Below are positions 3,427 through 54,426 of a stretch of DNA of 64,000 bases, piece after piece. How positions within the stretch are numbered: position 1 is the stretch's first letter; every line of letters begins with the position of its first letter. The stretch spans positions 11,988-75,987 of the forward strand of contig JBAXAB010000002.1 of the NCBI GenBank assembly GCA_037142735.1, read 5' to 3'. This DNA comes from a bacterium (lineage in GTDB: Bacteria > Patescibacteriota > Minisyncoccia > Phycocordibacterales > CAIZLB01). Under the pieces are notes generated by a model. It was given only the letters and a program-made list of their open reading frames with translations, had not been told where the DNA came from and did no database searches. The position numbers and the translations under genes are program-made.

Positions 3427-3996
3427 ATGATTGCACAACTTACTGGAACGGTAGCTTATATTGATTTAAAATTCATCATCCTTAATGTGAACAATGTTGG
3501 ATACAAAGTATTCACAACAAACGATGAACTCTCTACCCTCTCGGTTGGATCAGAGCGAGCATTTTGGATACATAGCACCATACGAGAGGATGCATTTGAT
3601 TTATATGGTTTTACTAAAAAAGAGAATCATGATTTTTTCGAGCTTCTCATCACGGTGTCTGGGATAGGACCCAAGTCCGCCTTAGGGATTTTATCGGTTG
3701 CTAGCGTAGAAAGCCTACGCGAAGCGATTGTTTCCGGAGAGACGTCATATATCACAAAGATAGGTGGTATCAGTAAAAAGATTGCAGAAAAAATCACAAT
3801 AGAGCTTCGTGGAAAAGTAACCAGTGATGAAGGTGAATTCTCTAAAGGGAGAGGTAAAAATGACGCTGATGCCCTTGATGCATTACGTGCGCTCGGATAT
3901 AGTCACAAAGAGGCTCGTGAGGCGCTAGAAAAGGTCCCAGCTACAATCAAGGACCCTGGAGAGAAGGTTAAAGCCGCACTGAAGAATCTCGCCTAA
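3427..3996 (+). CDS. ruvA: Holliday junction DNA helicase RuvA
   Basis: 189 aa; RuvA N-terminal OB domain, HhH region (GIGPKSA) and C-terminal domain; -10 TATAAT just upstream. Confidence 0.85.
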   Translation: MIAQLTGTVAYIDLKFIILNVNNVGYKVFTTNDELSTLSVGSERAFWIHSTIREDAFDLYGFTKKENHDFFELLITVSGIGPKSALGILSVASVESLREAIVSGETSYITKIGGISKKIAEKITIELRGKVTSDEGEFSKGRGKNDADALDALRALGYSHKEAREALEKVPATIKDPGEKVKAALKNLA

Positions 3997-12326: not shown

Positions 12327-12560
12327 TTGTTTTAAAGGGCTGCGATGTACCAAGACAGATTCACTAGAATTTGCCTTGTAACACCTGGTTAAACTCAGAT
12401 CTAATTATACAATAGATAATAGCCTTATGTCAATATTAAAATTTAAACAATAGAAAAGGCCCTGGGTGCACTTCGTTTCGCCTTGCGGCTAACGAGAGTG
12501 CATTCCAGGACCTTGTTTTGCTTCACAGAGTGGATCGAGGGTGAAGCTTCCTCTTTGTCG

Positions 12561-13178
12561 CTATTGTCCGAGCGCGACTACGCCCCCCCCGTTACGCTGG
12601 AGGAATCGGGTTCCGGCTTCGGAACCTGCAGCCCTCTTCGTTGCCGTCGAGCCCCGCGTGTTGTTGTACGCGTTCTCTGCTGACCGGATTGCACCCGTGT
12701 ACAGATCAGGACGAAGGTGTTTCTTCCCGTCGAGACCCATGACAGCGACGCTGTCTGGGTACCCGCTGATGAAGACCTTCGTGGTGCCGTTCGTGTTCTG
12801 GTAAGGAATCACGGGTTGCGCGACTGGGACGTCGGGTTGCGGCGCCGGCAGCATCTGGGATCCGGGGATCTCGATGGGCACGAAGCTGGCCTGCCGATTG
12901 CTGCAGCATCCGAAGACCGCGCAGGCGATCCCGATCAAGGCGATGATGCCCAAGATCGCGAGGAGTGCGTACCAGACGTTTTTCCATCCGGTCCATGCGC
13001 AGGCCTGCGGGCAGGGCTGCGCGGCGGCGGCTGGAGCGCCTGCGGGTGCAGGTGCACCGGCGGGAGCTCCGGGAGCGGCTCCGACTCCGGTGGCGGACAA
13101 ACCCGTGAGGGTTGCCGTTCCGTTGCCGTTCCCGGTGGACGTGATAGCGGTGATGTCGAACTGTGCGTTGATTTTCAT
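12561..13178 (-). CDS. hypothetical Pro/Ala-rich membrane protein
   Basis: 205-aa ORF with PGAPAGAPAPAGAP low-complexity tract and one central TM helix; GC-rich, so frame choice is uncertain. Overlapping ORFs in other frames look like GC-driven artefacts. Confidence 0.35.
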   Translation of the reverse strand: MKINAQFDITAITSTGNGNGTATLTGLSATGVGAAPGAPAGAPAPAGAPAAAAQPCPQACAWTGWKNVWYALLAILGIIALIGIACAVFGCCSNRQASFVPIEIPGSQMLPAPQPDVPVAQPVIPYQNTNGTTKVFISGYPDSVAVMGLDGKKHLRPDLYTGAIRSAENAYNNTRGSTATKRAAGSEAGTRFLQRNGGGVVALGQ

Positions 13179-13198
13179 GGTGTTTTTGTTTTCTGAGT

Positions 13199-13259
13199 GT
13201 TGTTATCTGCAAAAAATAGCTTTAAGGCTTATTTATAGCCACTTTTTGCAGATAACAAC
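13199..13259. repeat. perfect 17-bp inverted repeat (gttgttatctgcaaaaa / tttttgcagataacaac) with 27-nt spacer
   Basis: read directly; 20 nt upstream of the minus-strand ORF start at 13178 and at the GC-rich/AT-rich boundary. Confidence 0.55.
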
Positions 13260-13516
13260 TAAACCCTTTCGAAACCTCCTCTACCTTGAAAATCTCTTGT
13301 AAGTAACTTTATCTGGTATTAGTATAGCATACTATCCTATCCTGTCAAGTACCCCCTTCCCGCCATGTTTTATGTGTGTTTTTGTTGTTTTTTGTACGTA
13401 AATGATCCTATCAATTCAATACCAAATCTTTTAAAAAAATTTAACATAAAAAAATAAAAAATTTATCACCATTTTTAATAGCTCACGTTACGATAATCAA
13501 GTATAATGTTTTTGAA

Positions 13517-15196
13517 ATGATCAAGTTCGACGAAGATAAACAAAATCAAAAAATACGAGAGCTCCGAATCAAAGAAGAAGAGCAGTCTGCACAACTCATT
13601 GCTGATAGATATGGTATTGCATACATCGACCTCACCAGAGTTCCGATCAACACAGATGCGCTTCGACTTATAGTAGAGGATGAGGCACGTGAAAACAAAT
13701 TAGCAGTTTTCGACATAGTGGGTAGAAAAATATCGGTGGCCATTCATTCCCCTACCGATGAAAAAATAAAACAATCAATTGAAGTCTTAGCGAAAAAAGG
13801 TTATGCCCCAACCTTATTTATGACATCAATTATTAGTTTAGAAAAAGCGTGGGACAGATACAAAGATCTTTCTTTTGCTTTTGAGACCGAGGCTGGATCG
13901 CTGGATATTTCAAGTGATGAAATTGAAAAGTTAATTGAAAAGTCGCACAAAATGCCAGACGTCATCGCTCTTTTGAACGAAGCGATGCAGATGAAGAAAA
14001 GTCATCGCACCTCACAATTGCTGGCTATCATGATGGCAGGTGCCTTGGCAACAAAAGCCTCAGACCTTCACATTGAACCAGAAGAAGACCACGCTCGCCT
14101 TCGCTACAGACTAGACGGTGTGTTAATCGAGACTGTTCAGTTCGATTTGGATACTTATAATTTATTATTGTCTCGTTTAAAATTACTTTCAGGCTTGAAA
14201 CTCAACATTAAAGAGAACTCTCAAGACGGACGCTTCACTGTAAAAATTTACACAAATGATATTGAAATTCGTACTTCAACCATTCCTGGTTCATATGGAG
14301 AATCAGTGGTAATGCGAGTCTTAAACCCTTCAAGCATCTCTGTGGGTATTGAAGATTTAGGAATGCCAACAAAACTTTATAATTTAATTCAAGCAGAAAT
14401 TAATCGACCGAGCGGTATGATTTTAACTACAGGACCAACTGGTTCCGGCAAAACCACAACCTTGTATGCCTTTTTAAGAAAAGTAACAAATACTGAAACA
14501 AAAATAATCACCATCGAAGACCCGGTTGAATACCACCTGCCCGGAGTTGTTCAAACGCAAGTAGAAGAAAAAAAGGGTTACACCTTTGAATCCGGATTGC
14601 GTTCTGCTATGCGACAAGATCCTGACATTATCATGGTGGGTGAAATCCGAGATGGCGAGACGGCAAACACTGCTATCCAAGCGTCTCTTACTGGTCACTT
14701 GGTTTTTTCTACCCTTCACACAAACAGTGCGGCGGGAACATACACTCGATTGGTGGATTTGGGCGCTGACCCAAAGGTTTTAACTTCTGCCATTCATGTG
14801 GCCCTTGCGCAACGATTGGTCCGAATTTTATGTAAAAAATGTGCCAAGAAAATTCCGGTGCCAGAAATCAGAAACAAATTAATTGATGACGTTATTGCCT
14901 CATTGGTTGGGCTAGACGAAGCCTCTGAATTTCCCACTAGACCAACAGAGATCTGGCAGGCAGTTGGATGTGATGCTTGTAATACCACAGGATATAAAGG
15001 ACGAATCGGGGTATTTGAAGCAATCTTCTCAGACCAATCAATTGAGCAAATTATTCGTGAAAGCCCTAGTGAAAGAGAGATAAAAGAGGTTGCAAAAAAA
15101 CAAGGAATCATCGATATGAAGCAAGATGGTGTTTTAAAGGTGCTACGCGGGGTTACTACTTTTGAAGAATTGGAACGTGTGGTTGATTTGGTTTAG
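13517..15196 (+). CDS. pilB: type IV pilus assembly / type II secretion ATPase (PilB/GspE family)
   Basis: 559 aa; Walker A GPTGSGKTTTLYA, Asp box, His box and C-terminal tetracysteine (CKKC...CDAC); -10 TATAAT at about 13500. Confidence 0.85.
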   Translation: MIKFDEDKQNQKIRELRIKEEEQSAQLIADRYGIAYIDLTRVPINTDALRLIVEDEARENKLAVFDIVGRKISVAIHSPTDEKIKQSIEVLAKKGYAPTLFMTSIISLEKAWDRYKDLSFAFETEAGSLDISSDEIEKLIEKSHKMPDVIALLNEAMQMKKSHRTSQLLAIMMAGALATKASDLHIEPEEDHARLRYRLDGVLIETVQFDLDTYNLLLSRLKLLSGLKLNIKENSQDGRFTVKIYTNDIEIRTSTIPGSYGESVVMRVLNPSSISVGIEDLGMPTKLYNLIQAEINRPSGMILTTGPTGSGKTTTLYAFLRKVTNTETKIITIEDPVEYHLPGVVQTQVEEKKGYTFESGLRSAMRQDPDIIMVGEIRDGETANTAIQASLTGHLVFSTLHTNSAAGTYTRLVDLGADPKVLTSAIHVALAQRLVRILCKKCAKKIPVPEIRNKLIDDVIASLVGLDEASEFPTRPTEIWQAVGCDACNTTGYKGRIGVFEAIFSDQSIEQIIRESPSEREIKEVAKKQGIIDMKQDGVLKVLRGVTTFEELERVVDLV

Positions 15197-15294
15197 TTAT
15201 TACCTGTTTATACAAAGTTTTACACTTAGTTATCAAGGTTTTTGGGTGGTTATTACACAACCCTTACACAACCAGACCACAGTCTATAAACATT

Positions 15295-15315
15295 TTATCC
15301 ACATATTTATCCACG
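15295..15315. promoter_or_regulatory. two tandem DnaA-box-like 9-mers (TTATCCACA, TTATCCACG)
   Basis: direct sequence match to the DnaA box consensus, 12 nt apart, in the pilB-ruvB spacer. Confidence 0.3.
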
Positions 15316-15321
15316 TCACGT

Positions 15322-15357
15322 AAAGAGCCCTACTGTCAATTGACAGTAGGGCTCTTT
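15322..15357. terminator. 36-nt perfect palindrome (terminator-like hairpin or operator)
   Basis: aaagagccctactgtcaa/ttgacagtagggctcttt; downstream of pilB; no strong T-run. Confidence 0.45.
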
Positions 15358-15428
15358 CGGCGCTATTGTGTAAGAAGTTCTTTTCACTCTTCTTAACAAG
15401 GCTCTCAACTATTTCAGAAACAGGTCTT

Positions 15429-15578
15429 TGAATTTCTAAGCAATGCTTTCAATTATAAAATCGGAAGCCCAATGAGCCTCCAAGGATAGCTCCAGTACAT
15501 CACCGTAAGGTGATAACCAGATCGTCCTTTAAGAAACATCGATACACCGCGGGACGGTGGTATTGCTTAGAAATTCAA
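15429..15578. other. 150-bp element bounded by 17-bp perfect inverted repeats (structured ncRNA or MITE-like)
   Basis: ttgaatttctaagcaat ... attgcttagaaattcaa, 116 nt apart; interior has GNRA-capped short hairpins (tcacc-gtaa-ggtga; caccg-cggga-cggtg). Confidence 0.3.
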
Positions 15579-15685
15579 GGAACCGTTGAAAAAAGAAAGT
15601 GCACACAATATCTCAAAGTCTTCCGAAAGTACAAAGGATATCATGCGCACAACTACGAACAATAGGTTAACATGATCTATATTTT

Positions 15686-16690
15686 ATGTCAAGTACACCC
15701 GATAAACAACCAATAGAAGAGCGCGCCTTGGATCAGACCCTCCGACCCAACACCTTTAATGATTATATTGGTCAGGAAAACATCAAAGACAACCTGCACA
15801 TCCTTCTGACTGCAGCAAAACAAAGGAATCACCCACCGGAACACGTACTTTTTTATGGCCCGCCAGGACTTGGAAAAACAACACTTGCTTACCTCATTTC
15901 AAAAGAGATTAATGCTCAAATAAAGGTCACTTCTGGTCCAGCCATTGAACGCGTCGGCGACCTTGCTTCTGTGTTAACCAACCTTTCACCAGGGGATATT
16001 TTATTTATAGATGAAATACACAGGTTAAACAAAACCGTTGAAGAGGTTCTCTACCCCGCCATGGAGTCAGGACAAATTGATATCATTATCGGCAAAGGCC
16101 CGTCAGCAAGAACCATTCAACTGGACTTGCCACCCTTCACTCTTCTTGCGGCAACAACAAGAATCGCAATGATCTCATCCCCTCTGCGTTCAAGATTCTC
16201 TGGTGGCGTGTTTCGTTTAGAGTTTTATACAGAAAGCGAAATTGCAAAAATCGTAAGTCGCTCAGCCAAACTGCTTGGGATAAATATTGCTGATGAAGCG
16301 GTTAACGAAATCTCAAGACGCAGCAGATCAACACCACGAACTGCGAACTATCTATTGAAACGATGTAGAGATTTTGCACAAGTAAGAGGCACAGACTTAA
16401 CAAAATCAGTTATTGACGAAGCTTTGTCTATGTTAAGCATTGACCACAAAGGCCTTGCCTTATCTGATCGAAAAATTCTTCAGACGGTGATTGAAAAGTA
16501 TAACGGAGGCCCTGTTGGATTAAACACCATCGCAGCATCCCTTGCTGAAGACCAAGCAACCATCGAAGAGTTCAACGAGCCGTATCTAATACAAATTGGC
16601 TTTATTGAGAGAACTCCCCGTGGAAGAATAGTAACTAAGGCGGGTTACGACCATCTTGGAATACCCTATCCGACTGAAAAGTTACTATGA
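15686..16690 (+). CDS. ruvB: Holliday junction DNA helicase RuvB
   Basis: AAA+ Walker A GPPGLGKTTLA, sensor motifs, winged-helix C-terminus. Confidence 0.9.
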   Translation: MSSTPDKQPIEERALDQTLRPNTFNDYIGQENIKDNLHILLTAAKQRNHPPEHVLFYGPPGLGKTTLAYLISKEINAQIKVTSGPAIERVGDLASVLTNLSPGDILFIDEIHRLNKTVEEVLYPAMESGQIDIIIGKGPSARTIQLDLPPFTLLAATTRIAMISSPLRSRFSGGVFRLEFYTESEIAKIVSRSAKLLGINIADEAVNEISRRSRSTPRTANYLLKRCRDFAQVRGTDLTKSVIDEALSMLSIDHKGLALSDRKILQTVIEKYNGGPVGLNTIAASLAEDQATIEEFNEPYLIQIGFIERTPRGRIVTKAGYDHLGIPYPTEKLL

Positions 16691-17184
16691 TTATTCTTGC
16701 TATTGATCCAGGATATGAAAGATTGGGAATTGCTGTGGTAGAAAAAACCCACACCAAAAAAGAAACCGTTTTGTTTTCAGAATGCTTCAGAACTTCTTCT
16801 AAATTGGATTTTTATGAGCGACTCCTTTTGATTGGTGACAGGGTTTTAGAAATTATAAAAAATTATTCCCCTTCATCACTTTCGATCGAGAATCTTTTCA
16901 TCAGCAACAACCAAAAAACAGCAATGCGTGTGTCTGAGGTACGTGGTTCAATTATTTTTCTAGCAAAAAAACAAGGATTGACCATTTATGAAATGACACC
17001 TCTCCAAATAAAATCAGCCGTCACAGGAAATGGAAAAAGCAGCAAAGTAGAAATGATAAAAATGGTCGGACTCCTTACTAAAAATTCTTTAAAAACCCTT
17101 AAAAGCCAACCTCTTTTGGACGACGAGTTTGATGCTATTGCGATTGGTTTAGCCTATTTTGCATACAACAAATTACCGATATAA
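16687..17184 (+). CDS. ruvC: crossover junction endodeoxyribonuclease RuvC
   Basis: MIILAIDPGYERLGIAVV RNase H-fold start; overlaps the ruvB stop by 4 nt. Confidence 0.85.
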   Translation: MIILAIDPGYERLGIAVVEKTHTKKETVLFSECFRTSSKLDFYERLLLIGDRVLEIIKNYSPSSLSIENLFISNNQKTAMRVSEVRGSIIFLAKKQGLTIYEMTPLQIKSAVTGNGKSSKVEMIKMVGLLTKNSLKTLKSQPLLDDEFDAIAIGLAYFAYNKLPI

Positions 17185-21780: not shown

Positions 21781-22881
21781 TTAGCGGTTCATGGGCATAA
21801 CTACGTATGAAAACGAATCATCATTTACAACTTTTATTACCAAAGGTGTATTTGTACCACTAAACATAAAAGTAAGACTGTCTGCTTTCAAAGAATTAAA
21901 AGCATCACTAATATATCTAAAATTAAAATTCAGACTAAGGTCGTCCCCTTTTACTGTTGCATTAATTAGAGAGGAATTTTCTCCAACTTCGTTGTTTTTA
22001 GAGATTATTTCCATCTGTTTCTCTTTTGAGTGGACGGTTAGTTTTACGTGATTAAAGGTATCAGTGAAAATAGTGCTTAGTTTTAAGCTGTTTATGAGGT
22101 CTTGTTTCAAAATAGTGACCTCAGAGGTAAACTCTTTTGGAAAAATAGCCTTATAATTAGGAAAGTTTCCTTCTGTTGTTCTTGAGACAAGATACAAATC
22201 GTCAACCATAATAGCCATTTGATTTTTATCTATCAAAATTGATATTTCAGCCTTTATATCGTCAATAATCCTTATAATTTCAGAGACGTTCTTGATAGGA
22301 ACAAGAATTGCAGGAAAATCTACTCCTTTTTTTGTTCTTACTTTCTTTTCAGCAAGACGGAAGCCATCTGTGGCAACAAAAACAATAGAATCTCCCTCAG
22401 GATAGATTTTAACACTAGATAGCTCTGGTTTTATAGTAGAGGTAGCGGAACTGTATGAAACACTCCTTAAACCCTCTATAAAGTCTTCTGAGGCTATATT
22501 AAAACCATTAGGTGATTCAATTCGCGGTATTGAAGGAAATTCTTCAGGGGAGAAACTTTTGATAATCGTACTGTTTTTTGAAGTTGATACGTGAAGATTG
22601 TTTTCTATGGTCTCTAATATTATAGATTTTTCGTTTCCAACATTTGAAAGAAATCCGTTCAAGATCGTACCCGGTGCAGCTACCTGTCCTTTTTCTGTCA
22701 CTTTAACAGGAATTTGAATTTCAATCCCTAAATCCAAGTTAGTGGCTTTGATAGTTAAACTATTATCCTGCGCTTCTATAAATATGCACTTCAAAATAGG
22801 CAAAGAAGCGTTTCTTCCGGTGACTTTTTCTGCTTTCGCTACAGCATGTGCCAGTTTTTCTTTAACGGATTCAATTTTCAT
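21781..22881 (-). CDS. dnaN: DNA polymerase III beta sliding clamp
   Basis: 366 aa, three-domain clamp; sits immediately downstream of dnaA. Confidence 0.85.
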   Translation of the reverse strand: MKIESVKEKLAHAVAKAEKVTGRNASLPILKCIFIEAQDNSLTIKATNLDLGIEIQIPVKVTEKGQVAAPGTILNGFLSNVGNEKSIILETIENNLHVSTSKNSTIIKSFSPEEFPSIPRIESPNGFNIASEDFIEGLRSVSYSSATSTIKPELSSVKIYPEGDSIVFVATDGFRLAEKKVRTKKGVDFPAILVPIKNVSEIIRIIDDIKAEISILIDKNQMAIMVDDLYLVSRTTEGNFPNYKAIFPKEFTSEVTILKQDLINSLKLSTIFTDTFNHVKLTVHSKEKQMEIISKNNEVGENSSLINATVKGDDLSLNFNFRYISDAFNSLKADSLTFMFSGTNTPLVIKVVNDDSFSYVVMPMNR

Positions 22882-23180
22882 TTCTTTATTGTATGTATTT
22901 AATTTTTATTTAATTTTTTACAAACCCCTTATTATTAGTCCTGTTGATATGTGGATAATCCCCAATCCCTTTTAATCTCTTTGTCTAATCGAAATTTTTA
23001 TCCCCACTCGTTTGTATAAGGTGTTGTTGGTTTGCGGGAAAAGTTCCATTGTTTATTTTTTCTGTGGAGAACTCCTTAATTATACACAACCTATTCTAAA
23101 ATAATTATGTATTTATCCTATACTTTTCCCGAAGTTTTCCACCGCTAGTACACAATCTTATTAACAAAAGATACAATTTT
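22882..23180. promoter_or_regulatory. candidate oriC (dnaA-dnaN spacer with DnaA-box cluster)
   Basis: AT-rich 299-bp spacer with TGTGGATAA (22950-22958, perfect), TTATCCCCA (22998-23006), TGTGGAGAA (23063-23071), TTATCCTAT (23113-23121). Confidence 0.55.
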
Positions 23181-24512
23181 TTAAATGAGCGCCTTAATCT
23201 GGTTTATTTCTCCGGCCAGTTCACTGTTGTTTTTCAATTCGTTTCTAATCTTTTCACACGAGTGAATGATGGTTGTATGGTCTCTTCCTCCCATTTTTTG
23301 TCCAATTGACGGGAAAGAGTGGTTAAATTCTTCACGGAGAAGATACATGGCCACTTGTCTGGGTTTAACTATCTCTTGGCGGCGAGTTTTGCTGTAAATA
23401 ATCTCTTCTTCTATGTTGTAGTAAGCAGAAACGGCCTTTATAACATCCTTAGCAGAGACATTTTTCTGAGGTTTTGTGGTATTTTTGGTAAGATTCTTAA
23501 TTTCCAACAGTGTTAAGTCCCGGTTCTTTAACTGGGACTGACAAATAATATTGTTTAAGATCCCTTCTAGTTCTCGAATGCTGCCGTGTACTGTTGTGGC
23601 AAGGAAGTCAGCTGTTTCGTGAGGTAAGTTAAAATTTCCATGCAGAGCTTTGGTCTTCAGGATGGCAATACGAGACTCTTGGTCAACAGGAGAAATATCA
23701 ATGATCATTCCCTGCATAAATCTTGATTTTAAACGATCCTCGAGGTTTTGGAGGTAATTGGGGTGCATATCAGAAGAAAAGATAATCTGTTTATTGCTGT
23801 CATATAAATAGTTGAACAGATGAAACAATTCTTCCTGGGTCTTTTCCTTATTAGAAAGAAATTGGATATCATCCATTATAAAAACATCGTATTTTCGGTA
23901 CTTTTCCTTAAAATTGTTAACTTTGTTGGCCTGCACAGCATTTACATAGTCCACCGTGAACTTTTCTGAGGTTACGTAGTGTACCCTCTTCTCTTTGTTG
24001 TGGTTTTTAAAGTAGTTCCCTACCGCCTGCATAAGGTGGGTTTTTCCCAAGCCGGTATTTCCGTGGAAAAAGAGCGGGTTATAAGCCACTGGCTTCTTTA
24101 AAATTGCCTGGGAAGCCGCATGCGCCAGTTCGTTAAAGGGCCCAACCACAAAAGTTTCGAAAGTATAGCGTGGATTAAGGTTGTCTTCAGGATTTATAAC
24201 AAGATTGTCCAAAGGAAGTTCTTTTGTGGGTCCTGGCTGAGGTGTTTTATCAGACTTTTTCTTCTCAGCTTGTCCTATTGAATACTCTAAAGACCTAACG
24301 TTTTCCTCTATATTACGTAAAGATTGCAAAATAACCTTATGGTACTTGGTCTGGAGCCAATCTTTAACAAAAGTGTTAGGAACCGCAAGAAACACTACAC
24401 CGTCCTCAATTTTGGATATAAAAGTATCTTTGAACCACGTGGTGAAGTTCGGGCGCGAGACTTCGAGTTCAACTTGAACCAAAGCTGTATCCCAAATTTT
24501 CTGTGTGTTCAT
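23181..24512 (-). CDS. dnaA: chromosomal replication initiator DnaA
   Basis: 443 aa; AAA+ Walker A GNTGLGKTHL, domain IV DNA-binding helix-turn-helix. Confidence 0.9.
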   Translation of the reverse strand: MNTQKIWDTALVQVELEVSRPNFTTWFKDTFISKIEDGVVFLAVPNTFVKDWLQTKYHKVILQSLRNIEENVRSLEYSIGQAEKKKSDKTPQPGPTKELPLDNLVINPEDNLNPRYTFETFVVGPFNELAHAASQAILKKPVAYNPLFFHGNTGLGKTHLMQAVGNYFKNHNKEKRVHYVTSEKFTVDYVNAVQANKVNNFKEKYRKYDVFIMDDIQFLSNKEKTQEELFHLFNYLYDSNKQIIFSSDMHPNYLQNLEDRLKSRFMQGMIIDISPVDQESRIAILKTKALHGNFNLPHETADFLATTVHGSIRELEGILNNIICQSQLKNRDLTLLEIKNLTKNTTKPQKNVSAKDVIKAVSAYYNIEEEIIYSKTRRQEIVKPRQVAMYLLREEFNHSFPSIGQKMGGRDHTTIIHSCEKIRNELKNNSELAGEINQIKALI

Positions 24513-24657
24513 AGTGGTTGCTATTATAGCTGTTCACAAACTCTTTGGAACTTGTGGAAAGTTTATAAACATGTTGATAAGGTGTGGACGGGGTGGATAA
24601 CCTCATTTCAACATATAATTTTGCCAAATCGGATAAATAGTATATACTCTCCCCATC
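24513..24657. promoter_or_regulatory. dnaA/rpmH divergent promoter region with DnaA-box-like sites
   Basis: gGTGGATAA at 24592-24600 (1 mismatch), TGTGGAaAg and TGTGGAcgg nearby. Confidence 0.35.
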
Positions 24658-24792
24658 ATGTCTCAAACATATAATCCATCAAAGCGAAAAAGAGCAACCA
24701 CTCACGGGTTTCTTGTTCGATCTAAAACTCACGGAGGCAAGCGCGTTCTAAAGGCTAGACGTCGAAAGGGACGAAAGAAGCTTTCTGTATAA
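24658..24792 (+). CDS. rpmH: 50S ribosomal protein L34
   Basis: 44-aa product [44 protein letters not shown]; not in the ORF track (<60 aa); canonical position before rnpA. Confidence 0.85.
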
Positions 24793-24804
24793 GGGTTTTG
24801 TACT

Positions 24805-25158
24805 ATGTTGCCAAAAAAACAAAGACTAACTTCTGTTGAAATAGAAGAGGTTATGATCAAAGGAAAGCCACTCTTTTCTGATTTTTTTGTGGTTAAATTC
24901 ATAAAAAACCACACATTAGAGATTGCGCAGGGTTTTAAGATCTCAGCTGTGTCTCCAAAAAAACCTTTTTCCACAGCCGCTCTTCGTAACAAGGCTCGCC
25001 GTAGAATATACTCTGCTCTAACTTCTTTTTTGGAGACACAAAAACCAAAATCAGGACTTCTAATTGCTATTGTTGGAAATAAAAAAGTCCTGGATATTCC
25101 CCTTTCTGACTTAAGTTTCTCTCTAGAGCAGACTTTCAGAAAAGGAGGTATACTGTAG
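24805..25158 (+). CDS. rnpA: ribonuclease P protein component
   Basis: 117 aa, basic, RnpA-like; rpmH-rnpA-yidC synteny. Confidence 0.8.
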   Translation: MLPKKQRLTSVEIEEVMIKGKPLFSDFFVVKFIKNHTLEIAQGFKISAVSPKKPFSTAALRNKARRRIYSALTSFLETQKPKSGLLIAIVGNKKVLDIPLSDLSFSLEQTFRKGGIL

Positions 25159-25161
25159 CCC

Positions 25162-25896
25162 ATGTTTTCATCATTTTATAACAATTTTCTTTATCATCCT
25201 TTATACAACGGCCTTGTTTATCTTATTGGGGTTGTCCCCTACCACGACGTTGGTATAGCGGTAGTGGTTCTTACTTTGGTAGTTAAGTTTATCCTTTTCC
25301 CTCTTTCAAAGAAGAGTGTAGTAACTCAGATCAAAATGAAACAGCTTGATCCTGAATTAAAAGCATTACAGGCAAAGTATAAAGATAATCGACAGGAATT
25401 GTCGCAACAATTACTTACGTTCTATAAAAAGAATCAATTAAACCCTTTCTCTGGCCTTTTTCTGATCCTTCTCCAGTTGCCTATTATCTTTGCTCTTTAT
25501 AAAGTTTTTTACTCTGGAGACATCCACATTATAAATACAACAATTCTCTATTCTTTTGTGGGCATTCCCGCTGCTATTAATACTATTTTCTTGGGAATAT
25601 TCGACCTTGCTATTAAACACTCGCTTTTCCTATCTATATTTGTCGGTATTACCCAGTTTATCCAAGCTCAGTTGGTTGTTCCTCCCCACGATAAAACTAA
25701 ACCAATAGATCCTAAAGACATGGGACAAAATTTGGCTCGTAGTATGAATACTCAAATGAAGTATGTTCTACCTGTATTTGTTGCCTTTATTTCATATTCC
25801 TTAGCCAGTCTGGTTTCTGTCTACTGGATCACAAGTAACATTTTCGCTATCGGTCAAGAGTTGTATTTCCGTAAAACTATTAAGAAGAAGTCTTAA
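25162..25896 (+). CDS. yidC: membrane protein insertase YidC (short Gram-positive/CPR type)
   Basis: 244 aa, five TM helices, conserved hydrophilic groove region; synteny after rnpA. Confidence 0.8.
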   Translation: MFSSFYNNFLYHPLYNGLVYLIGVVPYHDVGIAVVVLTLVVKFILFPLSKKSVVTQIKMKQLDPELKALQAKYKDNRQELSQQLLTFYKKNQLNPFSGLFLILLQLPIIFALYKVFYSGDIHIINTTILYSFVGIPAAINTIFLGIFDLAIKHSLFLSIFVGITQFIQAQLVVPPHDKTKPIDPKDMGQNLARSMNTQMKYVLPVFVAFISYSLASLVSVYWITSNIFAIGQELYFRKTIKKKS

Positions 25897-52794: not shown

Positions 52795-52867
52795 GCGCTC
52801 GTGGCTCAATGGATAGAGCACTTGGCTTCGGACCAAGGGATTGCAGGTTCGAATCCTGCCGAGCGCA
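52795..52867 (+). tRNA. tRNA-Arg (anticodon TCG)
   Basis: 73-nt cloverleaf; acceptor gcgctcg/cgagcgc; anticodon loop cttcgga; T-loop ttcgaat. Confidence 0.85.
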
Positions 52868-52940
52868 CACGACCTTTAGTTATTTTTTTTATTAAGATTC
52901 CTTTCCGGGGTCTAAGTTAAGAAAAGTATAAAAGACAAAT

Positions 52941-53011
52941 GCAGGTATGGTTTAGTGGTAGAATGCGTCCTTGCCAAGGACGAGACGAGAGTTCGATTCT
53001 CTCTACCTGCA
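52941..53011 (+). tRNA. tRNA-Gly (anticodon GCC)
   Basis: 71-nt cloverleaf; acceptor gcaggta/tacctgc; anticodon stem cgtcc/ggacg with loop ttgccaa. Confidence 0.85.
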
Positions 53012-53351
53012 CAGAATATAATTCTAGCCTCTAGTTTCAAAAAACATTGATAAGTAAGGATTTTTATGAATTGGCCATTGCCAAAATGTGCAAAACTGTG
53101 GATAACTCAGTGGATATGTGTATAAAAGACAGATATCAAAAATGACAAAAATTGTCCTCTAGAAGTGTATTTTTCTAATATATCTATATTTATCAAGCTA
53201 TTTTGCGTTTTGGTGCATAAAAGACGCGGCTATAACATGTGACTTTTTATGTATCACGTGAAACATTGGTTTTATAGGATTTTAAGACAAATTAAGCAAT
53301 AATTCATTCAAGATTAAGGTTTATTTGCCTTTCGAAGCTTAAAATAGGAGA

Positions 53352-53843
53352 ATGATTGAAAGTAAGATTTTAGGTGAGTTTGGAGAGTTTTTGGCAGGGT
53401 GCCGACTTGTATCTAAAGGTCACAAAATTTTGCGAACTAGATATAGGAAGTGGGGTGGGGAAATAGATATTATTTCAACAAAAAACAAGGTTATCTATTT
53501 TAACGAAATTAAGACCAGGATTGGTAAAGGGAAGGATGGGGTGGATCTTCGGAACATAGGTATCACTAGACACAAAGTCAGCAAGGTCATTAAATGCGCC
53601 CAACATTTTATCCAGAATGAGATAGCTGATATTTTCTATACAACTAAGCAATTCGATGCCTATTTTTTAGAGGTTGTCCTAAATCAAGAGATTAAGAGGA
53701 TTCAAGAAGATGTTTCTACAGTTTCGGACCTGAAATGCTACTTTACTGAAGGAAAGATAAGAATTTTGGCCACATATATAGAAAATATGGATAGGGAAGT
53801 TTTCGGGTGCTATGGAACAAGTTTAATAAGTGATAAAGATTGA
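53352..53843 (+). CDS. YraN/UPF0102-family (restriction-endonuclease-like fold) protein with C-terminal extension
   Basis: N-terminal ~110 aa match the YraN pattern (GE..A..YL..KG..IL.RNYR...GEIDII); extra roughly 50-aa C-terminus. Confidence 0.5.
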   Translation: MIESKILGEFGEFLAGCRLVSKGHKILRTRYRKWGGEIDIISTKNKVIYFNEIKTRIGKGKDGVDLRNIGITRHKVSKVIKCAQHFIQNEIADIFYTTKQFDAYFLEVVLNQEIKRIQEDVSTVSDLKCYFTEGKIRILATYIENMDREVFGCYGTSLISDKD

Positions 53844-53888
53844 GATATGAGGATATCTGTGTTAGGATTCAACACGTTATCGGCATAT

Positions 53889-53961
53889 CGGGGCGTAGTG
53901 TAACGGTTAACATTCCTGTTTTGGGAACAGGCGACTCAGGGTTCGAATCCCTGCGCCCCGA
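53889..53961 (+). tRNA. tRNA-Pro (anticodon TGG)
   Basis: 73-nt cloverleaf; acceptor cggggcg/cgccccg; anticodon loop tttggga. Confidence 0.85.
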
Positions 53962-53966
53962 CAATT

Positions 53967-54305
53967 TTGAAAAAGTTTATAAAAAACAAGGAGGATTTTG
54001 AGTGTGAGAAATGCCATACCAAAGTGATTGGTACTGGCTATACAAACCATTGCCCTAATTGCCTCTATAGTAAGCATGTTGATGTGTCTCCAGGAGATAG
54101 GGCTAATCCATGTGGGGGATTAATGAAGCCTGTTAGAGTAGAGGGAACAGGTATAGACAAAATGCAGATAGTTCACAGGTGTGTTAAGTGTGGCGTAGAG
54201 AAAAATAACAAAATCCAATCCTCTGACAACATAGAGATGGTTGCAAATGTCGCCAAAGAGTTTGCGAAGGAAAAAGTAGAGGGTTGGAAGTTGAAAAGAG
54301 ATTAA
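53967..54305 (+). CDS. RNHCP-domain zinc-ribbon protein
   Basis: EDFECEKCHTKVIGTGYTNHCPNCLYSKHVD matches the RNHCP signature. Start is uncertain: the ORF track uses a TTG 5 nt after tRNA-Pro. Confidence 0.5.
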   Translation: MKKFIKNKEDFECEKCHTKVIGTGYTNHCPNCLYSKHVDVSPGDRANPCGGLMKPVRVEGTGIDKMQIVHRCVKCGVEKNNKIQSSDNIEMVANVAKEFAKEKVEGWKLKRD

Positions 54306-54351
54306 ATTGTAGATTTCAAGGCTCTCTGGTATATTACCAGGGTACAAAAAT

Positions 54352-54422
54352 GCGGGATTGGTTTAGTGGTAGAATGACTGCCTTCCAAGCAGTAGACAAG
54401 GGTTCGATTCCCTTATCCCGCA
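54352..54422 (+). tRNA. tRNA-Gly (anticodon TCC)
   Basis: 71-nt cloverleaf; acceptor gcgggat/atcccgc; anticodon stem actgc/gcagt with loop cttccaa. Confidence 0.85.
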
Positions 54423-54426
54423 CTAG

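Follow-up and report, generated by a model that had tools for sequence, protein, structure and literature searches.

A structured small-RNA family of Paceibacteria beside ruvB

Cis-encoded antisense RNAs located at convergent promoters, such as CopA/CopT, RNA I/RNA II and Anti-Q (prgQ/prgX, pCF10), are usually poorly conserved in sequence and form simple stem-loops. Orphan structured small RNAs (sRNAs), among them the Weinberg/Breaker motifs in Rfam, are recognised through covariation, a promoter and a terminator, and belong to one lineage. 6S RNA is 160-200 nt long and combines an outer closing stem with an apical stem and, on the 3' side of its central region, a hairpin (PMC8414754). In this study, a 64,000-nt stretch of contig JBAXAB010000002.1 (the window) was analysed, with a focus on the spacer between a PilB-type secretion ATPase gene (13517-15196, plus strand) and ruvB (15686-16690, plus strand), which were identified with Pfam; ruvC (16687-17184) lies downstream of ruvB. 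The spacer holds a structured unit that is, with high confidence, an autonomous small-RNA gene on the minus strand. It belongs to a structured small-RNA family of Paceibacteria that is previously undescribed.

The small RNA resembles the cis-encoded antisense RNAs in having a strong promoter of its own opposite a target leader, a structured counter-transcript with a terminator, and facing promoters a few hundred bp apart, which implies transcriptional interference. Unlike them, it has a four-way junction whose helices are near-invariant in ~190 genomes, and it stays intact away from ruvB. It shares with the orphan structured sRNAs the means of recognition and the confinement to one lineage, but it matches none of the 4227 models of Rfam 15 and comes from Patescibacteria. 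With 6S RNA (SsrS; RF00013 and relatives), the points in common are a length of ~170-180 nt, a long closing stem, an apical stem, a 3'-side hairpin, a sigma-70 promoter, a single-locus gene found lineage-wide, and high conservation beside the central region. However, the centre of this RNA is a covarying four-way junction, and no similarity to the 6S models was found at E<=10 in 21 members of the family. Two further comparisons concern the DNA itself. The spacer is like DnaA-box clusters (oriC, datA, DARS, DnaA-regulated promoters) in having direct TTATCCACA-type 9-mers with an 11-12-nt period, but it has two boxes, shows no enrichment, and keeps them in close relatives only. It is like miniature inverted-repeat transposable elements (MITEs) in having terminal inverted repeats of 17-26 bp around a ~150-bp unit, but it is single-copy, sits at a fixed syntenic locus without target-site duplication, and its repeats act as an RNA helix.

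RuvB assigns the window to the Patescibacteria, class Paceibacteria, among metagenome-assembled genomes labelled Zambryski-, Taylor- and Parcubacteria. The genome set consisted of 80 ruvB loci with a RuvB protein identity of 72-94%, which together with the window gave 81 sources. A protein-homologue search for distant RuvB loci returned, among the matches listed, proteins of at least 73% identity in every case. The metagenome set was collected with an RNA-only pattern built from invariant positions and gave at least 120 contig copies. Alignments were made with the minus-strand covariance model R2 and contained 76 genome-derived copies (A5) and 74 metagenome copies (A6). The structured unit adjoined ruvB in 75 of the 81 sources with nhmmer and a first covariance model, and in 76 with the minus-strand model, while R2 matched 74 of the 100 metagenome loci searched. 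The small RNA was found in ~190 of the ~200 related Paceibacteria loci examined. Three further genome loci without a call were truncated by the contig end. In two others, L047 (3905-3911) and L062 (3867-3878), pilB and ruvB abut with no spacer between them, and no RNA was found within about 4 kb on either side; these genomes have either lost the RNA or carry it elsewhere. Viral contigs searched with the same RNA pattern gave no copies. One weak extra match of the first covariance model (30.7 bits) was seen at L040:6589-6657 on the plus strand, ~2.8 kb downstream of ruvB, and is probably just a long hairpin.

The family was compared with described RNAs by scanning Rfam 15 at the gathering threshold (whole window) and at E<=10 (15100-15800 and 20 homologous loci), and no match was found at either setting. 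A covariance-model scan of this kind, proposed in an earlier note on this DNA, therefore gave no known family for the element. Literature searches found no description of this RNA and no report of a lineage-specific structured sRNA from Patescibacteria. The signal recognition particle (SRP) RNA, RNase P RNA, transfer-messenger RNA and Y RNA were considered and set aside. The motifs used for this (GGAA/AGCA in SRP helix 8, GGAAAGUCC in the P4 helix, and the T-loop) were absent by eye, and the Rfam models agreed.

The overall fold is a compact four-way junction with linkers of 0-3 nt. In the final structure on A5, 92.6% of alignment cells were paired, compared to 78% in shuffles and 37-50% when the partners were slid, and compensatory changes were seen in 50 of 67 pairs. 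The independent metagenome set gave 91.5% of cells paired and compensatory changes in 41 of 57 pairs. The 5' and 3' ends of the RNA are paired by P1, a helix of 25-28 bp that is the same thing as the "terminal inverted repeats" of the earlier note. The 17-nt perfect inverted repeat described there is real (15428-15444 / 15562-15578), with the left arm having been placed off by one; the complementarity extends to 26 nt at 88% (15419-15444 / 15562-15587). One subgroup has G.U pairs inside P1 (one pair is GC in 37 sequences and GU in 28), which shows that the constraint on the terminal repeats acts at the level of RNA rather than on a pair of DNA sites. The parts that are near-invariant across three subgroups are the P1 core (AAUCUCUAAGCAA / UUGCUUAGAGAUU), AGGA/UCCU, CUGG/CUG, and CUUU/AAAG at the base of P2', and the P1b sequence AAUCUCUAAGCAA is nearly invariant in all subgroups. 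Every distinct sequence (75 of 75 and 73 of 73) has the tandem U.G/G.U of P3b. The loops and joining strands vary between subgroups. A small open reading frame (ORF) of 28 codons, from AUG to UAA, lies inside the RNA; it was rejected because the variation tracks base pairing rather than codons, and its AUG is missing in relatives such as L018 (AUCGGU).

Where the closing helix is palindromic, either strand will appear structured, and the choice between them must rest on wobble-pair statistics, promoters and terminators. Each strand of the 171-nt unit folded far more stably than its shuffles, at -58.8 kcal/mol (z -6.3) for the plus strand and -68.4 kcal/mol (z -7.4) for the minus strand. A plus-strand model (alignment A1, model R1) initially looked good: pairing was seen in 90.3% of cells and compensatory change in 39 of 54 pairs. 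It was dropped since A.C combinations outnumbered G.U pairs, the minus strand was more stable, and the minus strand carries a consensus promoter. An A.C on one strand is a G.U on the opposite strand, and the plus-fitted alignment had 253 A.C vs 145 G.U, 74 of the latter from one invariant pair. The minus-strand alignments had G.U to A.C ratios of 619:96 and 547:73. The consensus energy from RNAalifold was -64.7 kcal/mol on the minus strand vs -36.8 kcal/mol on the plus strand, and the single-sequence minimum free energy was lower on the minus strand in 71 of 74 cases. What appears on the plus strand as an invariant "CA/CA loop" becomes, on the minus strand, the tandem U.G/G.U within a continuous helix, and canonical C(UUCG)G and CUUG tetraloops are found among the loops of this strand. 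Pairing of the joining strands UUCUU/AAGAA was unsupported on the plus strand; G.U pairs on the minus strand explain the pairing, which is still weak. At the 3' end, the run of A before the helix on the plus strand is a run of U after the helix on the minus strand. The wobble statistics, stability, promoter and 3' end agree, and the minus strand was assigned on these grounds.

The small-RNA promoter is of the sigma-70 type with an extended -10 and reads into the element, away from ruvB. Codons 1-3 of ruvB (ATG TCA AG) supply its -35, and the promoter is the sole match in the window to TTGACA-N14-TGNTANNNT. On the RNA strand, TTGACA-N16-18-TANNNT was present in 146 of 148 loci and TGn in 143; the remaining two have TTGACT or TTGACC. 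Transcription probably begins at about 15657. The -10 and P1 are 6 to 192 nt apart (median 62), and where the gap is 6-12 nt the transcript must begin at P1 itself.

The promoter also remains with the RNA when the pair is displaced from ruvB. On the RNA strand between the promoter and ruvB, L035 (2728-3900) has a 224-amino acid (aa) ORF without a Pfam match, and L052 (320-1352) has a gene for a tRNA-Thr editing-domain protein; in both loci the promoter stayed with the RNA and both were intact. In L135 (1-300), the RNA and its promoter adjoin an unrelated gene whose product begins MKKIDDNSEKD. Since the promoter is kept in these cases, the element is not a leader of ruvB. Such displacements are rare: among the matches listed, ruvB was found within 450 nt and opposite in strand to the RNA for 109 of the 110 pattern-found loci with enough DNA, compared to pilB within 650 nt in only 58 of 79. 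Coordinates of the features are collected in Table 1.

Table 1. Features of the small-RNA gene, of the pilB-ruvB spacer and of comparable loci (window coordinates unless a locus is named).
Feature	Position	Strand	Remarks
Structured RNA domain, first to last P1 pair	15418..15588	-	171 nt here; family median 168 nt; covariance model
P1, 5' strand	15562..15588	-	P1a 15588-15581, P1b 15578-15562; P1b is the right-hand 17-nt repeat
P1, 3' strand	15418..15444	-	P1b 15444-15428, P1a 15425-15418; P1b is the left-hand 17-nt repeat
P5' hairpin, 5 bp, at junction	15544..15560	-	5/5 pairs compensatory, 92% of cells paired
Long arm, ~26 bp	15470..15541	-	Pj, Pk, P3a, P3b, P4'
Pj	15541-15538 / 15473-15470	-	covaries
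Pk, AU-rich, weakly paired	15535-15529 / 15482-15476	-	paired in 55-85%
P3a (AGGA/UCCU)	15528-15525 / 15486-15483	-	
P3b, invariant tandem U.G/G.U	15523-15517 / 15495-15489	-	
P4' hairpin, UUAC loop	15515-15498	-	
P2' hairpin, 10 bp, stacked on P1 3' strand	15445..15468	-	7 to 9 of 10 pairs compensatory
5' leader	15589..15657	-	long hairpin 15650-15599, then U-rich UUUCUUUUUU 15598-15589 (fold)
Small-RNA promoter	15664..15692	-	-35 TTGACA 15692-15687; 17-nt spacer ending TGT; -10 TAACCT 15669-15664
Candidate ruvB-sense promoter, TTGACA-18-TATTGT	15340..15369	+	10/12 consensus matches
Perfect 36-nt palindrome, 18-bp arms, AAAGAG...CUCUUU	15322..15357	.	between pilB stop and small-RNA 3' end
Two DnaA-box-type 9-mers, TTATCCACA and TTATCCACG	15295..15315	+	15295-15303 and 15307-15315; 12-nt period; 25-45 nt upstream of ruvB-sense -35
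Tandem TACACAACC x2	15254..15273	+	15254-15262 and 15265-15273; 11-nt period
Group-3 box arrays	L098:1428-1470		likewise L092, L112, L118, L158, L165 and others

All of the spacer features listed in the earlier note, including the tandem 9-mer, the two DnaA-box-type 9-mers and the palindrome, are present in the sequence. The five closest relatives share the palindrome, with a compensatory T>C / A>G change (CCCTACTG...CAGTAGGG to CCCCACTG...CAGTGGGG). It is probably a bidirectional intrinsic terminator, serving pilB on the plus strand and read-through from the small RNA on the minus strand. Its U tract is only 3 nt long, and a simple terminator scan made no call there. A U run directly follows P1 in many loci. 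Possible roles for the hairpin of the 5' leader are attenuation, RNA processing or protection, and termination of a short antisense RNA made separately. In group 2, the leader hairpin is accompanied by a conserved A-rich motif, UUGAAAAAAG.

The -35 of the candidate ruvB-sense promoter lies inside the loop of the palindrome. Equivalent promoters were found 18-70 nt before the 3' end of the small RNA, with the form TTGAC[AT]-16-18-TAnnnT in group 1 and TTGCGA-16-TATACT in group 2, and no consistent ruvB-sense promoter was found between the RNA and ruvB in these two groups. In group 3, a ruvB-sense TGCTATAAT element is located between the RNA and ruvB (L098). We infer that ruvB in the window uses the candidate promoter. 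If so, the 5' untranslated region (UTR) of ruvBC would be ~310 nt long and antisense to the entire small-RNA gene, and the two promoters would face each other ~320 bp apart.

Our favoured interpretation, which we consider somewhat better than an even bet, is an autonomous structured-RNA gene whose product likely binds protein in trans and whose transcription opposes that of ruvBC. Protein binding in trans as the main function is proposed more tentatively from the pattern of conservation, and falls short of an even bet. The near-perfect sigma-70 promoter would drive the RNA, with transcription running away from ruvB through the variable leader and then through the four-way-junction RNA. In the window, termination would probably be completed by the palindrome 60 nt past P1. 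The RNA would be abundant and stable and would act in trans through protein binding, as suggested by its invariant helices, its protected ends and the best-consensus promoter of the window. Since the loops and joining strands are variable, there is no conserved single-stranded seed and no ligand pocket. The lack of a conserved seed makes a base-pairing trans-acting sRNA unlikely, and the absence of a downstream gene in the RNA orientation together with the lack of a conserved pocket argues against a riboswitch. In cis, transcription of the small RNA would have to oppose that of ruvB-ruvC if the upstream promoter belongs to ruvB.

Several points weigh against this interpretation. The transcription start, the 3' end and the abundance of the small RNA were all deduced from sequence. 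In the window, as in 40 of 148 loci, the promoter is separated from P1 by a terminator-like hairpin and U tract, at which most transcripts could stop short of the structured domain. The U tract after P1 is weak in the window (GUUUCUG). The near-absolute linkage to ruvB fits a ruvB-specific role in cis equally well as a frozen overlap of promoter and start codon. In addition, the conserved helical sequence could reflect a constraint on both transcripts at once. Finally, the taxonomic range covered is that of relatives with a RuvB at least about 60% identical.

Gene regulation in Patescibacteria is little known. Very small genomes keep little that is dispensable, and the ~190 representatives, the 50 covarying pairs and the best promoter of the window suggest an abundant, stable RNA in such genomes. 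An RNA that is head-to-head with ruvB-ruvC, with its promoter over the start of ruvB, would also be a model for the control of recombination genes. The covariance model can be used for genome annotation and for metatranscriptome searches, for example at the Hainich groundwater wells, which together with JGI freshwater or sediment metagenomes supplied many of the contigs.

The alternative that survives best is compatible with the RNA gene and concerns the DNA to its left: the DnaA boxes, possibly with the TACACAACC tandem, might be a DnaA operator for the ruvB-sense promoter or for the small RNA. We regard this as possible but doubtful. The placement of the boxes just upstream of the ruvB-sense -35 (Table 1) is in keeping with an operator, and the proximal box was conserved in six of six close relatives. 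This box and its flank, TTTATCCACGTCACG, were identical in the six closest sequences while the DNA to the left had diverged. The distal box was kept in two of the six, and the TACACAACC tandem was not kept in close relatives, which counts against an operator. Further away, in a distant metagenome subgroup (group 3), 14 of 19 loci have two or three tandem TATC[AC]ACA boxes between the RNA and ruvB, compared to a background of 0.36 boxes per kb. These have an 11-12-nt period and lie directly downstream of the ruvB-sense TGCTATAAT. On the other hand, the position and orientation of the boxes vary between clades, and boxes are absent from most of the family, with two or more within 300 nt in only 10 of 150 loci. 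Across all loci, box density was 0.84 per kb near the RNA vs 0.40 per kb elsewhere, a two-fold difference that is explicable by AT-rich intergenic composition.

The window as a whole also bears on this question. The 9-mer TACACAACC has three copies in the 64 kb vs 0.42 expected, and the third (23083-23091) lies in the dnaA-dnaN spacer, where it overlaps a TTATACACA box. The gene dnaA is 8 kb away from the small RNA; this distance and the shared 9-mer are points in favour of an operator. The genes dnaN (21781-22881) and dnaA (23181-24512), both on the minus strand, are flanked by DnaA-box clusters at 22950-23088 and 24572-24975. The region 21781-24990 has the lowest GC content of the window (0.352), and a yidC-like gene follows at 25162-25896. 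This stretch is probably the chromosomal origin, 7.5-9.5 kb from the small RNA. The number of boxes in the window was not raised: 24 with at most one mismatch were counted vs 19.2 expected, and 22 of 100 shuffles reached 24. A DnaA-titrating or secondary-origin role for the spacer, which had been among the options offered for it, was not supported by this count, and the genuine clusters are those that flank dnaA at 22.9-25 kb within the dnaA/dnaN origin region (21.8-25 kb).

Another explanation is control of ruvB-ruvC by the small RNA as a cis-antisense RNA, through transcriptional interference and through a counter-transcript on the ruvBC 5' UTR, with the fold serving stability and pairing kinetics. 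We consider it unlikely. The position of the -35 within codons 1-3 of ruvB holds in nearly every locus, and the linkage to ruvB is much tighter than that to pilB. The one ruvB-sense promoter that is consistent in groups 1 and 2 is situated past the RNA gene. The gene, with its own promoter and candidate terminators, stands opposite the mRNA of its neighbour. The promoter-proximal hairpin and U tract in 40 of the 148 loci would yield an antisense RNA of ~60 nt. However, the transcript would begin ~29 nt upstream of the ruvB ATG and so leave the start codon uncovered. Where they have been displaced (L035, L052, L135), the RNA and its promoter are intact, and ruvB occurs without the RNA in L047 and L062. 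An antisense RNA is complementary to its target automatically, which leaves unexplained the near-invariant helices at RuvB identities of 60-94% and the covarying junction. As for the linkage, the spacing of zero between promoter and start codon leaves no neutral breakpoint, and this alone could explain why ruvB is more tightly linked than pilB.

The small RNA could also be the 6S-type RNA of Paceibacteria, binding the sigma-70 polymerase as a promoter mimic, with the invariant junction-proximal part of P1 as the downstream duplex and the template for short product RNAs. Among the named mechanisms this is the single most likely one, yet we still think it improbable. The P1-to-P1 median of 168 nt falls within the 160-200-nt range, and the rod shape, the closing and apical stems and the hairpin on the 3' side are as expected. 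The full-consensus sigma-70 promoter, the single locus kept lineage-wide and the unusual sequence conservation of the P1 core point in the same direction. Pk, AU-rich and weakly paired, could open, and literature searches found nothing on 6S RNA in Patescibacteria. The difficulty lies in the centre of the molecule. There is no large open central bubble, since P5', Pj and P2' all covary in a compact four-way junction, and the Rfam 6S models did not match the window or the 20 homologous loci at E<=10. We judge a 6S-like polymerase decoy in which a closed junction replaces the open bubble to be just as improbable.

Far less probable is that the RNA, a four-way junction paired almost throughout and joined by its promoter to the start codon of ruvB, mimics a Holliday junction and serves as a decoy or assembly platform for RuvA, RuvB or RuvC. 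The only support for this idea is the junction with 0-3-nt linkers and the near-absolute linkage to ruvB. If it were true, the activity or expression of the branch-migration and resolution machinery would be tied to the level of an abundant RNA.

A cis-regulatory leader of ruvB on the plus strand, acting as a riboswitch or by protein binding, is very improbable as well. The element is upstream of ruvB in nearly all loci, and the plus strand folds well (the z of -6.3 given above) and has one GNRA loop (GUAA). The GNRA-capped hairpins of the earlier note are thus borne out to the extent of that one loop, while the strand under selection has loops of the UUCG, CUUG or UUAC type. The strand tests point to the minus strand. 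Invariant positions fall within helices and form no conserved unpaired pocket, and a P1 of 25 bp is too stable for a switching helix. No conserved terminator or sequestering helix was found on the plus strand, the ATG is anywhere from 21 to ~1000 nt away, and the element survives away from ruvB. The suggestion of a structured regulatory RNA was therefore right in that a conserved, covarying RNA is present, but this RNA comes from the minus strand, where it has an autonomous gene with a promoter of its own, and is not a ruvB leader.

A MITE, suggested by the perfect 17-bp (26 bp at 88%) terminal inverted repeats that bound the ~150-bp unit, can be dismissed, as there is one copy in the 64 kb (no further copy of the 17-bp repeat was found in the window with up to two mismatches), the locus is the same in ~190 genomes and contigs, none was found in viral contigs, the flanks (15419-15427 / 15579-15587) continue the inverted complementarity with no direct target-site duplication, and the arms covary as an RNA helix and tolerate G.U pairs.

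Other parts of the window gave several minor observations. A RuvA-like coding region is located at 3427-3840 on the plus strand, with 33% identity over 139 aa to Escherichia coli RuvA (E 8.5e-21). It is 12 kb from ruvB-ruvC, and the ruv genes are thus split, with ruvA outside the ruvB-ruvC operon. Upstream of pilB, GC content reaches its maximum for the window (0.475) in the 1.16-kb stretch 12354-13516, where both strands carry overlapping ORFs; these ORFs had no Pfam match, and the stretch matched no Rfam family. It contains a near-perfect hairpin of ~60 nt at 13198-13258. Four tRNA genes (Arg, Gly, Pro, Gly) are clustered at 52795-54423, and a pair of DnaA-box-like 9-mers lies between them at 53097-53125.

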